A DNA stretch of 64,000 nt from Candidatus Aegiribacteria sp. (lineage in GTDB: Bacteria; Fermentibacterota; Fermentibacteria; Fermentibacterales; JCC-6): NCBI GenBank assembly GCA_030600545.1, contig JAUVLV010000007.1, positions 651-64,650 of the forward strand, given 5' to 3'. The notes under the pieces were generated by a model. That model was given only the letters and a program-made list of their open reading frames with translations, was not told where the DNA came from and did no database searches. Position numbers and translations under genes: made by a program. Below, piece by piece: positions 6,610 through 16,090 of this stretch. Every line of letters begins with the position of its first letter. The stretch's first letter is position 1.

Positions 6610-9246
6610 ATGACTTCACTCAAAAAACCTGACAAAGTCAGAATAGAGAAACTTGAAAACGGCCTTATGGTCATACTTCAGGAATTAACGTACTCCCCGG
6701 TAGTCGCTGTGTGTCTTGCATACAGGACAGGTTCATCGTGGGAAACCTCTGAAACTCGGGGCTTAAGCCATTTCTGCGAGCATATGATGTTCAAGGGGTC
6801 ACAAGAGTTCGGCCCCGGCAAGCACTGGCAGATGATTCAGCGCAACGGCGGGCTGGCAAACGCATATACATCCAGAGATATTACCGTCTATTACTCAGCA
6901 GTACCAAAGGCCGGCCTTAATGATATTCTTGAACTTGAGGCTGACAGGATGCGGAATTGCAGAATGACTGCGGATGATATTACTTCAGAAACAGCCGTGG
7001 TACTTGAAGAAGAGCTTCTTACAGAGAGAGATGATCCCGGGGGGACACTTGATTCCCTTCTGCACAGCAAAGCCTTCGGATCCCATCCCTACGGCAGGCC
7101 GATTACAGGTACGCAGGATGATATCAGATCATTTTCTCAAAAAGGACTGCAGGATTTTTACAGAAACTTCTACACTCCGTCAAATGCAGTAATTTCAGTT
7201 ATCGGAGATATTGACTGCGAAGCAGTATCAATAAAAATAAATGAACTTTTCGGTAAGTATTCGGGGCATGAGGCTGAAAGGCCTTCTGTTACGCCAGAAC
7301 CTCCCCAGACTAACCGGATACGAACAGAAATAGACTATCCCTCATATCTTCCCAGAGTCACCATAGGGTTCAAGGTTCCAGAAGCAGATCATCCGGATTC
7401 GGTACCACTTTCGCTTATTTCGGTTTATCTGTCATCCGGGAGATCCAGCAGATTTGAGGAGCTTCTGGTAAAACCATCACTGGTCCTGGACATCTCGGTT
7501 TCAACGAATACTCTTATCATGCCGGGGCTTTATGTGATACGGGCTGTGCTGCCAAGTGATGGCTCGGTTGAAGAAGTGGAAAGTATCATCTTTCATGAGT
7601 TAAGCAGGATAAGTGAAGAAGGTATTGACAATGAGACTCTGGCAACCCTTAAAATTCGCAGGGAAGCCTGGAGTATAATATCGGATGCCGACCCGCTGGG
7701 CAGGGCCAAAAGATTCTCCACAGGATATGCGAAATTCAATGATCCTTACTATTACTGGAATTCAATAAAGTTATTTAATACAGTAAGTGAAAGCGACATA
7801 AAAGGTGTTGCAACCAGGTATTTTAAAAGGAATATTTCAACTGTCGCTGTATTGCATCCTTCAAGCGCAGATATGTCTTCATCTAAACCGATCAAAATAT
7901 CCTCATCCGCTTCCGAACCTGATCTCATACCGCCCACGGCTCAGAAACCCTCTGAAATAGATATCCCCGACAGACTTCTGAAGGCACCTGATGTATCCGC
8001 ATCTGACAATGCAGAAGAAATAATCCTGGATAACGGTATCAGGATAATTCTGAAGGAGGACTTTTCCTTTCCGATCGTATCACTGGGATTCTCCTGCTCC
8101 ATGGGTTCAGACAGGGAACCTTCAGGTCTGACCGGTTTGTCGGAAATCGCAGCGGAAACCATGCTGTATGGAACACCCGATGAAGATAGTATCAAGTTCA
8201 ACGCAAGGCTTGAGAACCTTGGAACAGGTATGGATTTTTCTTCAACAAGCGAATATGCCGGAGGTATAATTACTTCACTGAGCAAGGATGTGAATGAAAT
8301 TCTATCCGTGATCTCCGACATGTTCATCAGGCCGGCCTTCCGTCAGAAAGATATTGATTCTGTCAAAACCGATGCGATCTCAACCCTTGAGGAATGGATA
8401 AAATCACCCGTGGGGGCTGCAATGAACTCCTTTTCCAGACAATCCACCGATCCGCCAGAGAGAGCAGCTGTACCCACAAGGGAATCACTTGAAACTATCA
8501 CTCGCGCGGACATTGTCGATTTTCATCACAGATTCTGCAAACCATCGGGAACCGTCATTGTCGCAGTTGGCAGTTTTCAGAAAGACGGAATACTCAAGTC
8601 AATCAACAGGTTCTTCTCCGACTGGAAGGAACCGGACTATCTTCCTGCAGAAATAGAGACAGTCAGCAATCAGCAAGAATCTTCTGAGCTGCATATCAAT
8701 CTGGAAGGCAGAATACAGATAGCTGCACTGATCGGATCACCGGCACCCCCAAGACTCCACGATGATTCCTATGCCATTTCCGTTCTCAGCGGAATACTTG
8801 GTGAAGGAATCGGGTCAAGGCTGGGAAGAAATATAAGGGAAACGGGTCTGTCATATCATGTAAGCAGCCTCTATATACCCCTGGCGGACAGGGGCAGAAT
8901 TGTTGCCCTTCTTCTAACAAGTCCTTCTGCTTTCTCCATGGCCTTTCAGAAACTTAAGCGGGAGATAGAGAATATTACCGAAAAGACAGTGAGCGAAAAT
9001 GAACTCAGACTGGAAAAAGCTTCGTACATTGGCCGTCAGGAACTGGGCATGATGAAGTACAGCGCTATAACCAGGATATTGCTTTCCTATGCGTCAATGA
9101 AACTTCCGCTGGACCACGACAGGTTTACACTGCGGAAAATATCAAAGCTGACAGTGGAAGATATCGGGCTTGCAGCGGAAAGATGGCTTGGAAGCGGAAT
9201 CACCTACGCATCTGTAGCGGGTGGTCTGGAGGCGATTCCCGAATAA
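6610..9246 (+). CDS. M16 (pitrilysin) family zinc peptidase, two M16 units fused in one chain
   Basis: 878 aa. The N-terminal half carries the inverted zinc motif HFCEHMMFKG (HxxEH). The C-terminal half repeats the M16 fold but has no HxxEH at the equivalent place (LSEIAAETMLYG). Confidence 0.85.
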   Translation: MTSLKKPDKVRIEKLENGLMVILQELTYSPVVAVCLAYRTGSSWETSETRGLSHFCEHMMFKGSQEFGPGKHWQMIQRNGGLANAYTSRDITVYYSAVPKAGLNDILELEADRMRNCRMTADDITSETAVVLEEELLTERDDPGGTLDSLLHSKAFGSHPYGRPITGTQDDIRSFSQKGLQDFYRNFYTPSNAVISVIGDIDCEAVSIKINELFGKYSGHEAERPSVTPEPPQTNRIRTEIDYPSYLPRVTIGFKVPEADHPDSVPLSLISVYLSSGRSSRFEELLVKPSLVLDISVSTNTLIMPGLYVIRAVLPSDGSVEEVESIIFHELSRISEEGIDNETLATLKIRREAWSIISDADPLGRAKRFSTGYAKFNDPYYYWNSIKLFNTVSESDIKGVATRYFKRNISTVAVLHPSSADMSSSKPIKISSSASEPDLIPPTAQKPSEIDIPDRLLKAPDVSASDNAEEIILDNGIRIILKEDFSFPIVSLGFSCSMGSDREPSGLTGLSEIAAETMLYGTPDEDSIKFNARLENLGTGMDFSSTSEYAGGIITSLSKDVNEILSVISDMFIRPAFRQKDIDSVKTDAISTLEEWIKSPVGAAMNSFSRQSTDPPERAAVPTRESLETITRADIVDFHHRFCKPSGTVIVAVGSFQKDGILKSINRFFSDWKEPDYLPAEIETVSNQQESSELHINLEGRIQIAALIGSPAPPRLHDDSYAISVLSGILGEGIGSRLGRNIRETGLSYHVSSLYIPLADRGRIVALLLTSPSAFSMAFQKLKREIENITEKTVSENELRLEKASYIGRQELGMMKYSAITRILLSYASMKLPLDHDRFTLRKISKLTVEDIGLAAERWLGSGITYASVAGGLEAIPE

Positions 9247-14546: not shown

Positions 14547-14590
14547 AGATAGAAAAGAATTTATCCATTTGTCCTTTACATTTGAAATCT

Positions 14591-14610
14591 ATATTAGTAT
14601 ATACTTATAT
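14591..14610. promoter_or_regulatory. 20-bp near-perfect palindrome, candidate ArsR/SmtB operator
   Basis: ATATTAGTATATACTTATAT has 18 of 20 positions symmetric, with a perfect core AGTATATACT. It sits 17 nt upstream of the ArsR ATG at 14627. Confidence 0.4.
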
Positions 14611-14626
14611 ACTGAAATGGAGATCT

Positions 14627-15007
14627 ATGAAAACAGAAGAATTTTCTCTCAAGCAGCTGGCTGAACTTATGGGTGTACTTGGCGTTGAAAGCAGGCTCAG
14701 GATAATTGTCCTTCTTCGGGATTACGAATCCCTCTGCGTGAATGCCCTTGCCTGCCATCTCGAGATTTCCCAGAGCGCAGTTTCCCAGCACCTTAGAATC
14801 CTTCATTTCAGCGGTCTTGTTACTTCCCATCGGGACGGTTACTATACCCATTACCGGCTGAACAGAGAAAAACTTGACAGCTCGATAAAGCTGCTCGCTC
14901 AACTTTCTGTCAGCCATGAACCAGTTAATCCAAGTAAATGCAATTCGAAAGGAGAGGAACAATGTGCGAATGTGAAGGAAAATGCCAGAAACCGGAAAAT
15001 CTTATAA
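14627..15007 (+). CDS. ArsR/SmtB-family metalloregulator
   Basis: Winged-HTH region LCVNALACHLEISQSAVSQHLRILHFSGLV. Cys in the alpha3 position and two Cys in the C-terminal tail (KCNSKGEEQC). The ATG at 14627 is preferred over the TTG at 14582. Confidence 0.85.
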   Translation: MKTEEFSLKQLAELMGVLGVESRLRIIVLLRDYESLCVNALACHLEISQSAVSQHLRILHFSGLVTSHRDGYYTHYRLNREKLDSSIKLLAQLSVSHEPVNPSKCNSKGEEQCANVKENARNRKIL

Positions 15008-15099
15008 GTAAACCGAGTGAATGTTCCCCCGAACAGATACGGAAATGTCATGGTCCGGATGGTTATCATCCATGCAAATCTGACAAAAAGGAAAAATAA
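14962..15099 (+). CDS. Small cysteine/histidine-rich protein (45 aa), unlisted ORF
   Basis: GGAGAGG Shine-Dalgarno, then ATG at 14962. Product MCECEGKCQKPENLISKPSECSPEQIRKCHGPDGYHPCKSDKKEK has 6 Cys and 2 His. It overlaps the ArsR 3' end by 46 nt. Its stop overlaps the next ATG (TAATG). Confidence 0.5.
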   Translation: MCECEGKCQKPENLISKPSECSPEQIRKCHGPDGYHPCKSDKKEK

Positions 15100-15428
15100 T
15101 GAAACGGATTCTACTTATTGTGTTAAGCATCACGTTAGCAGGTACCTTAGCTATTGCGCAGGCCCAGGAAGATACCAATACTCCTGACTGCAACAACTGC
15201 GAAACAGCAGACGGAGAATGCTGCTGTAATGGTACAGTTGATGGCTGCAGCGGAGACTGTGATGATTGCGATGAATGCGACTGTGATTTTGAAAATGGAG
15301 AATGCACGGATTGCAAAGAAATCAATCCAGATTGCGAAGACTGCAGTGGAAACTGTGATGAATGTGATGAATTTACTTCAGAAGAAGATGCAGTAGTAGA
15401 GGTTCCCCACTGCGGTGGATGCCACTGA
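15099..15428 (+). CDS. Secreted Cys/Asp/Glu-rich protein (metallothionein-like composition)
   Basis: Sec signal peptide (cleavage likely after AQA). The 86-aa mature part has 18 Cys and many D/E, a repeated CSG[DN]CD[DE]CDE unit, and a C-terminal HCGGCH. Confidence 0.7.
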   Translation: MKRILLIVLSITLAGTLAIAQAQEDTNTPDCNNCETADGECCCNGTVDGCSGDCDDCDECDCDFENGECTDCKEINPDCEDCSGNCDECDEFTSEEDAVVEVPHCGGCH

Positions 15429-15447: not shown

Positions 15448-15477
15448 TGAGCAGGCGGTAACGTCTGCTCTTTTTTT
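15448..15477. terminator. Rho-independent terminator, possibly bidirectional
   Basis: GAGCAGGCG-gtaa-CGTCTGCTC stem-loop followed by T8. It sits between convergent genes ending at 15428 (+) and 15485 (-). Confidence 0.7.
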
Positions 15478-15484
15478 TAAGCGA

Positions 15485-16090
15485 TTATGATTTCACTCTT
15501 ATAGAAATATCTTCCTTATCGTTGTACCCTTTTAGCGAGGATACAAGACCTGTAACAGCTCCCTTAATGATACTTGAAGGGAATTCACTCAGTTCGATAA
15601 GCCTGCCTCCCAGTTTCACTTCAACACTGCTCGAGGCGTAGTAACAATCCTCCTCCCTCTTCTCTCCCTGAAGAATAGCTTCTGCCAGCCTCCTGCAGTC
15701 CATTCCGCATTTTCCGCATTCTTCTGCCGTTTTCTGTGGAAGAAGGTTGAATGTTTTCCTGTATATATCTTCATAATCAATACCGGAATTTTCTCCATTG
15801 TACTGTGCGAGAAGCAGTGAACCATCTTCGATGGGCTCGCTGCCGCAGTAAATAATGGGAGCTGCCAGATAAATATGAGAACGCAGCAGAACGATATCCG
15901 GAGGCATGGATCGCATTATCTCCATTGCGAATGAAGAACCAGGGAAAGATACATTGCACTCTCCCGCTTCATTCTCTGAGATAACACATATCTTCCTGTT
16001 CCGCACAGTATCGCAGAAGTTAGTTATAAATTCGTTCACAAGATTGTCAGTACCGGTAACTTTAAGACATTTCATAGTTATACCCGCCAA
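15485..16090 (-). CDS. Fe-S cluster domain protein of unknown function (last gene of the tungstate-transporter operon)
   Basis: 201 aa. CGKCGMDCRRLAEAILQGEKREEDC resembles the RnfB-N-terminal / putative Fe-S cluster domain pattern (CxxCxxxC...C). The N-terminus is vaguely MobB-like but has no P-loop. Confidence 0.45.
   Translation of the reverse strand: MAGITMKCLKVTGTDNLVNEFITNFCDTVRNRKICVISENEAGECNVSFPGSSFAMEIMRSMPPDIVLLRSHIYLAAPIIYCGSEPIEDGSLLLAQYNGENSGIDYEDIYRKTFNLLPQKTAEECGKCGMDCRRLAEAILQGEKREEDCYYASSSVEVKLGGRLIELSEFPSSIIKGAVTGLVSSLKGYNDKEDISIRVKS

Follow-up and report, generated by a model that had tools for sequence, protein, structure and literature searches.

What does an exported protein with about one cysteine in every five residues and one acidic side chain in every three do under the control of an ArsR/SmtB-family repressor? 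The question is raised by a gene at positions 15099-15428 (+ strand) of a 64,000-nucleotide stretch of DNA from Candidatus Aegiribacteria sp. (phylum Fermentibacterota; assembly GCA_030600545.1, contig JAUVLV010000007.1, positions 651 to 64,650), which is called the window here. The gene is the last of a three-gene operon in the order arsR, a 45-aa open reading frame (mini-ORF) and the cysteine-rich gene. A sequence-only reading of the window had taken its product for a metal-sequestering or metal-chaperoning protein of a class that it did not recognise. Compared with known systems, it appears to be an ArsR-controlled cysteine-rich, presumed metal-binding protein that is exported and hyper-acidic, belongs to an undescribed family and has an undescribed mini-protein as its partner. 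The preferred reading, which is given a probability of about 45%, is that the protein acts as an extracytoplasmic metallothionein- or phytochelatin-like trap for a thiophilic metal or metalloid. Four elements of this reading are inferred: that the protein binds metal, what the effector is, that the cysteines stay reduced, and how the work is shared with an exporter.

The gene encodes 109 residues, including a Sec-type signal peptide (residues 1-22; 15099-15164, +). This N-terminus, MKRILLIVLSITLAGTLAIAQA, combines a K/R n-region, a hydrophobic core and an AxA site within 22 residues, and cleavage is predicted between AQA and QEDT. The assignment was judged from the sequence, and the n-, h- and c-regions recur family-wide with the AxA site, which is kept in all relatives of the protein; the exported, cysteine-rich reading frame first proposed is present. 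Neither a lipobox cysteine nor a conserved twin-arginine motif was found in the signal peptides of the family, the N-termini of which read MKRIL, MKTRL, MRKLI and MKARL. RR occurs in a few members only and lacks the S/T-R-R-x-F-L-K consensus.

The mature part contains 18 cysteines, as had been counted, in 87 residues rather than the 86 first given (20.7%). Asp and Glu account for 29 residues (33%; 16 Asp and 13 Glu), with one Lys, no Arg and two His, and the net charge of the protein is near -28. The only aromatic residues are two Phe, with no Tyr and no Trp. Asp or Glu directly precedes 11 of the 18 cysteines, and CxC, CxxC and CCC motifs are all present. The protein is thus small, high in cysteine with CxC, CxxC and CC motifs and poor in aromatic residues, as metallothioneins in the broad sense are. 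The genome (2.29 Mb) has 3,897 open reading frames that reach 80 aa, and in cysteine content this one ranks first (16.5%, median 1.7%); of the top-ranked cysteine-rich frames it is the only one to show such acidity.

Two elements that had been picked out by eye, a repeated CSG[DN]CD[DE]CDE unit and an HCGGCH end, were both found. The unit starts at residues 50 and 82, because the gene carries a 37-nt direct repeat (15240-15276 and 15336-15372) that is 84% identical. The best-conserved block is the core module CCCNGTVDGCSGDCDDCDECDC (residues 41-62; 15219-15284, +), which is present in two copies in distant members. The HCGGCH tail occupies residues 104-109 (15408-15425, +), and C105, G106, G107 and C108 are invariant in the 15-sequence family alignment. 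The family signature consists of the signal peptide, one or two CCCGG[TE]V[DE]GC[T]GDC[D][D]C modules, an acidic CxC/CxxC filler and HCGGCH at the extreme C-terminus.

That the gene is real and evolves under purifying selection follows from three observations: homologues span differing GC contents, the ratio of nonsynonymous to synonymous substitution rates (dN/dS) is 0.13-0.33 in pairwise comparisons, and column identity in the mature part is 80% for cysteines versus 44% for other columns. Outside the core module the positions of the cysteines vary across the family. The protein gave no Pfam match at E<=1 and no relevant NCBIfam match, and its family profile gave no PDB match at E<=10. Seven relatives were returned by a word-indexed search, and even when 1.84 billion representative proteins were scanned exhaustively with HMMER, no more than eight family representatives came up, in agreement with the earlier failure to recognise the class. 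All named sources are metagenome-assembled genomes (MAGs) of Candidatus Aegiribacteria or Fermentibacteria, and the family is confined to Fermentibacterota. No description of it was found in the literature on TsoR and on exported metallothioneins under ArsR. AlphaFold2 run with the family alignment gave no fold (predicted local distance difference test score, pLDDT, 43.6), which is the model outcome expected of an apo-thionein.

The function proposed depends on the state of the cysteines. None of the 26 genomes of the window genus, of which 15 are at least 90% complete, encodes DsbB or VKOR, and DsbA is missing from the genome to which the window belongs. The number of cysteines in the mature proteins of the family ranges from 9 to 23 and is odd about as often as even, which is at odds with a fixed disulfide scaffold. 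Haem c attachment at the C-terminal CGGCH, formally a CXXCH motif, was considered and rejected: PF01578 (CcmC/CcmF/CcsA) is found in 0 of the 26 genus genomes and the His is not conserved, as several members have Q, R or Y in its place; in divergent proteins the cysteine spacing varies as well. A second candidate was a bufferin-type ribosomally synthesized and post-translationally modified peptide (RiPP). Bufferins are small cysteine-containing peptides with Sec signals that chelate copper in the periplasm, and their cysteines are converted to thiooxazoles by an MNIO (DUF692) enzyme and its partner (PMC11626156). They need an adjacent MNIO, and PF05114 (DUF692) was found in none of the 26 genus genomes and in none of the conserved loci. 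A radical-SAM-modified peptide of the SCIFF type was likewise discarded, as the upstream radical S-adenosylmethionine (SAM) gene is an NrdG activase (TIGR02495, 163 bits, cut-off 131); this gene is absent from the corresponding loci of other genera and its adjacency is genus-limited. Free thiols are likelier than disulfides, haem or RiPP chemistry, because genes for DsbB, VKOR, cytochrome c maturation and MNIO are lacking and the cysteine counts are odd or even; on the earlier question of disulfides or free thiols, the latter are plausible.

The layout of the operon is that of a classic autoregulated ArsR/SmtB operon. The first gene, arsR (14627-15007, +), encodes a 126-aa ArsR/SmtB-family repressor with matches to PF01022 (HTH_5; 53.8 bits, cut-off 22) and NF033788 (76.7 bits, cut-off 55), and the placing of the cysteine-rich gene last in an operon that starts with such a regulator was correct. 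The second gene (14962-15099, +) encodes the 45-aa Cys4His2 mini-protein, MCxxxxKCxKPENLKGKPEECSPEQIxxCHGxxxxHPC. Its Shine-Dalgarno sequence is GGAGAGG at 14951-14957, it overlaps the 3' end of arsR by 46 nt, and it is joined to the cysteine-rich gene through a TAATG stop/start overlap. The terminator reported after the operon is an intrinsic one (15449-15478, +), whose 9-bp stem (6 G-C pairs) carries a 4-nt loop and is followed by T8.

Upstream of arsR, the -35-like hexamer TTTACA (14575-14580, +) was read from the sequence; it is TTGACA in other genera, and its position is kept in L001, L002, L013, L014, L006, L010, L020 and L023. The promoter was not listed in a consensus scan because its -10 region reads TATATA. 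Overlapping this -10 region is an imperfect 12-2-12 inverted repeat, TCTATATTAGTA-TA-TACTTATATACT (14588-14613, +), the presumed ArsR operator. The element had been described before as a 20-bp palindrome. In other genera the promoter-operator consensus AGTATATAAGTA-nn-TACTTATATACT is near-invariant and the rest of the upstream DNA is unrelated; the operator remains near-invariant even between loci with proteins just 30-60% identical. Control by the ArsR/SmtB regulator, as first suggested, agrees with this conservation of operator and promoter across genera with diverging flanks. A genome search for more operator copies, that is, for a regulon, returned none, and 14588-14613 is the sole such site.

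Cys37 (in the alpha3 'LCV') and a C-terminal Cys105-x7-Cys113 pair are conserved in the ArsR proteins of all triads, the triad being arsR, the mini-ORF and the cysteine-rich gene, and the closest solved relatives are HlyU and SmtB. In the window at 14935-14975, the TGT codon in CAATGTGCG that specifies the second conserved cysteine of the ArsR tail overlaps the ATG-TGC start of the mini-ORF, and the same few bases encode two conserved cysteines in two reading frames (arsR tail and mini-ORF start). Searches for the mini-protein gave nothing in Pfam or NCBIfam at E<=1 and nothing in the PDB at E<=10, and its AlphaFold2 model has a pLDDT of 65.6. The mini-ORF is kept wherever the cysteine-rich gene occurs. 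Its family contains at least 376 proteins and is found in 45 of the 70 genomes of the phylum. No mention of an arsR + mini-ORF module was found in the literature searched. An in-frame TGA that had been flagged as a possible selenocysteine codon in the mini-ORF of genus g8 is a stop codon after HPCC.

Comparison within Fermentibacterota separates the triad from its surroundings. The gene order in the window genus is nrdD-nrdG, then arsR, the mini-ORF and the cysteine-rich gene, then a convergent unit of an iron-sulfur protein gene and tupCBA. The triad also stays together in other genera (for instance in the original Mahoney Lake MLS_C genome), but there it lies between unrelated genes (HPP, Mrp antiporter and others); the adjacency to the tungstate transporter is therefore genus-level synteny only. 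The earlier reading had not decided whether this adjacency is meaningful, and a functional link to the tungstate ATP-binding cassette (ABC) transporter was rejected on the same ground. A 201-aa protein with the putative Fe-S domain PF04060 is encoded at 15485-16090 (-), at the end of the tungstate transporter operon; it is kept with the transporter genus-wide (58-67% identity) and lies outside the triad. In one locus (L002) an insert with DUF4143 and Por_Secre_tail genes splits the triad from the tungstate transporter, and at its far edge (7802-7969) lies a 56-aa N-terminal fragment copy of the cysteine-rich gene, which looks like a duplication scar of the insertion.

The hidden Markov model of the cysteine-rich family matches 26 of the 70 genomes of the phylum, and in 25 of these the mini-ORF and the cysteine-rich gene are adjacent. 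A further 26 loci from 25 genomes were examined, 21 with a mini-ORF and no detectable family partner and five family-positive ones from other genera. The gene after the mini-ORF encodes a signal peptide and an acidic cysteine-rich protein of 76-148 aa in nearly all of them. These divergent cargo proteins contain metallothionein-like runs of the (CTCED)n type and a C-terminal CxGC(PGxGC)[H/Q/R] tail, and variants of a CxxC(x3-4)C/H tail are found on all of them. The cargo class is thus phylum-wide, although it evolves too fast to be captured by a single profile. In one locus (L074, G067:C46) the mini-ORF is broken by three stop codons and the downstream 76-aa cysteine-rich frame, ending in HCGRCY, is intact; the locus may be decaying or may contain an assembly error.

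Two variants of the cargo indicate the kind of process that the module serves. The cargo of genus g6 (L061, G040:C18; L062, G041:C1) is a 176-aa exported LTXXQ protein of the CpxP/Spy/ZraP family (PF07813, 27.3 bits, cut-off 24.3) with a Cys/His-rich N-terminal part and the tail ...CDCSGGGCH. By analogy, the same cysteine tail suggests an equivalent envelope role. The sister family f2 (L070-L073: G001, G006, G007 and G008) has the order arsR, mini-ORF, cysteine-rich gene, ABC-2 ATPase and ABC-2 permease. Only a distant paralogue of this exporter (41% and 29% identity, contig C64) is present in the window genome. Together these variants point to the envelope and to efflux. An arsenate reductase-like gene of the low-molecular-weight phosphatase type (TIGR02691, 113 bits, below the cut-off of 174) was seen directly after the triad and convergent to it in a single MAG (L023, 5366-5815, -); it is the sole arsenic-related neighbour seen.

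The arsR + mini-ORF pair is common outside Fermentibacterota, with 376 proteins and at least 520 metagenome stretches from several phyla; Brocadiia, Phycisphaerae and Verrucomicrobiota are among the sources. The loci viewed were L025, L030, L034, L078, L081 and L084-L163, with a metagenome sample of 80. The start of the mini-ORF usually overlaps the 3' end of arsR by about 43-46 nt across the pair loci, and tandem-double versions of the mini-protein, of 75-81 aa, also occur. The same ABC-2 exporter as in f2 follows the pair in 40 of the 80 sampled loci and a SAM methyltransferase in seven; the cysteine-rich protein is found in two only, both Aegiribacteria-type. The exporter proteins of f2 are 59-70% identical to a reference copy on L030, and the methyltransferase cargo reaches only 31-35 bits with the arsenite methyltransferase (ArsM) model, for which the cut-off is 263. 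To judge from how often the exporter and the methyltransferase occur, the sensor pair normally drives efflux or detoxification cargo, and Fermentibacterota have added to this cargo, or in some genera put in its place, an exported polythiol.

These observations can be assembled into a mechanism. In the absence of effector, ArsR would sit on the 12-2-12 operator over the -10 region and repress its own three-gene operon. The effector would be thiophilic, most probably a soft metal or a metalloid, and would bind Cys37, Cys105 and Cys113 of the repressor, and the translationally coupled Cys4His2 mini-protein may assist this response. The effector-bound repressor would then leave the DNA and the operon would be derepressed. 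The cysteine-rich protein would be exported by the Sec route as an intrinsically unstructured polythiol and polycarboxylate, an analogue of metallothionein or phytochelatin outside the cytoplasm, and it is proposed to keep its cysteines reduced because the lineage has no periplasmic disulfide-forming system. The reduced protein would capture the metal or metalloid in thiolate/carboxylate clusters outside the cytoplasm. It probably traps what the exporter pumps out or what is about to enter, because it is co-transcribed with the ABC-2 exporter in f2 and this exporter is the usual cargo elsewhere. Metal capture by such a chain has a precedent in the ribosomally made (Glu-Cys)n peptides (EC20), which, when produced in bacteria, bind Cd, Hg, Zn, Pb, Cu, Ni and As (PMC4611968). 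A bolder and more tentative form of the proposal sees in the fast-evolving protein a 'phytochelatin' that is natural, encoded by a gene and exported, and that stays reduced because the periplasm has no Dsb system; it would be the extracytoplasmic arm of a widespread, undescribed ArsR/Cys4His2 co-sensor/ABC-2 exporter resistance module. It would be directed against a thiophilic metal(loid) or euxinic thio-metal species, with the CxxC(H) tail as a loading or hand-over site.

Several points weigh against the trap. The metal binding of every family member is predicted, and an acidity as extreme as this is atypical of metallothioneins. The ArsR protein appears to fall in no characterised sensor subgroup, and its equivalog scores are all far below the cut-offs: CmtR 34 bits (150), BigR 36.6 (155) and TsoR 40 (115). 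The MAG that contains the window is 73% complete. The hosts live in sulfidic, anoxic, polysulfide-rich euxinic settings (PMC4846661), and free soft-metal ions are scarce in such a habitat. Two further points, the cysteine spacing of the regulator and the neighbours of the sensor pair in other phyla, also tell against the trap and belong to its main rival.

In this main rival, which is unlikely, the protein would be a buffer against reactive sulfur or thiol redox stress: a dithiol ArsR of the SqrR/BigR/HlyU type would control an exported polythiol that soaks up periplasmic sulfane sulfur or oxidants. The spacing of Cys37 and Cys105 is 68 residues and resembles the 66 of C41 and C107 in the persulfide sensor SqrR (10.1101/2020.03.22.001966), and Cys113 is also C-terminal. 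HlyU is among the best solved relatives of the regulator, free thiols are likely, and the hosts' surroundings contain much sulfide and polysulfide (PMC4846661). Genes for TusA, DsrE, cysteine desulfurase and metallo-beta-lactamase-fold (Lactamase_B) proteins sometimes lie near the sensor pair in other phyla. However, the BigR score is among the low ones given above, and the second ArsR cysteine lies in a Pro-containing tail past alpha5 and not within alpha5. No gene for sulfide:quinone oxidoreductase, persulfide dioxygenase or rhodanese was found in the operon in the Fermentibacterota loci examined. What the sensor pair most often drives elsewhere is an efflux pump, alone or together with a methyltransferase, an arrangement typical of toxicant resistance. 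One-third Asp and Glu, moreover, would have no obvious role in sulfane-sulfur chemistry.

A rather improbable alternative is metal acquisition, in which a periplasmic thiolate protein would compete with sulfide for Zn, Ni, Co, Fe and perhaps thio-tungstate or thio-molybdate, and would pass these on to importers. By established geochemistry, thiophilic metals are bound to sulfide in sulfidic habitats such as that of the hosts (PMC4846661). The operon adjoins a tungstate ABC importer in the window genus, and the invariant C-terminal CxxC(H) tail resembles a hand-over or docking site. This adjacency is lost in other genera, however, and ArsR/SmtB repressors classically derepress under metal excess. 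The partner cargo, in f2 as in other phyla, is an ABC-2 exporter and not an importer, and a protein with so large a negative charge is unlikely to bind an anionic oxo- or thiometallate.

It is very unlikely that the protein is a disulfide-knotted secreted peptide (signal, bacteriocin, adhesin or structural) or an acidic mineral-nucleating or calcium-binding protein, for although it is small, secreted and cysteine-rich and its acidity is like that of biomineralisation proteins, none of the results specifically favours this reading, the genus has neither DsbB nor VKOR, the cysteines are odd or even in number and variable in position outside the core, the conserved unit has no immunity, processing or dedicated export genes, it is under ArsR control, and an LTXXQ stress protein can take the place of its cargo.

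The preferred reading, an extracytoplasmic thiolate trap, can be compared with several known systems. Its working resembles that of SmtB-SmtA, in which an ArsR/SmtB repressor and a 12-2-12-type operator likewise stand over a small cysteine-rich protein with CxC and CxxC motifs. SmtA differs in being cytosolic, with about 56 aa, nine Cys and His ligands, a Zn4 cluster and a zinc-finger-like core, whereas the protein described here is Sec-exported and hyper-acidic, contains 18 cysteines and has no sequence relation to SmtA. In the present operon, regulator and cargo are co-transcribed, with the Cys4His2 mini-protein between them. The profile for bacterial metallothioneins (SmtA/BmtA, Metallothio_Pro) gave no match, and the signal peptide is at odds with their cytosolic location.

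About 10% of the residues of Csp1 are cysteine. It is a Tat-exported copper storage protein of methanotrophs and Neisseria that holds 13 Cu(I) per monomer (PMC7558416). The likeness lies in a soft metal kept on many cysteine thiolates outside the cytoplasm, where storage is a property of Csp1 and is predicted for the present protein. Csp1 is a pre-folded four-helix bundle, whereas the window protein has a Sec-type signal, about 21% cysteine and no family match; no confident helices were modelled after its signal peptide, although the low pLDDT limits the strength of this result, and a Tat signal of the Csp1 type was not found in the family. With phytochelatins and EC20 the protein shares the chemistry of alternating acidic residues and cysteines (PMC4611968). 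Natural phytochelatins are enzymatic products, gamma-Glu linked and intracellular, and EC20 is an engineered peptide displayed on bacteria, whereas the present protein is natural, gene-encoded and exported and includes non-repeat blocks (CCCGG..GC..DC, HCGGCH). The ZraP/CpxP/Spy (LTXXQ) family is linked to it through genus g6, where the same arsR + mini-ORF module drives an LTXXQ protein with the same tail, but the window protein has no LTXXQ domain and no helical fold. It resembles SmtB-SmtA in its working, yet it is a member neither of that family nor of the Csp, bufferin, cytochrome or LTXXQ families.

Bacterial metallothioneins are regarded as rare and cytosolic. Outside the cytoplasm, thiolate stores are known, to our knowledge, in two forms: Csp1, which is folded and leaves by the Tat route, and the bufferins, which are modified by an enzyme. 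If the reading is true, an unmodified protein that is exported by Sec and has 21% Cys and 33% Asp + Glu would represent a third strategy for the extracytoplasmic buffering of thiophilic metals or sulfur species. A short, repeat-like cysteine-rich protein of this kind is also an obvious candidate for metal-capture applications. A whole candidate phylum of strict anaerobes would share this strategy, which is workable only with a reducing periplasm, and the module of arsR and the 45-aa Cys4His2 protein could represent a way of sensing that is new to the ArsR/SmtB family.

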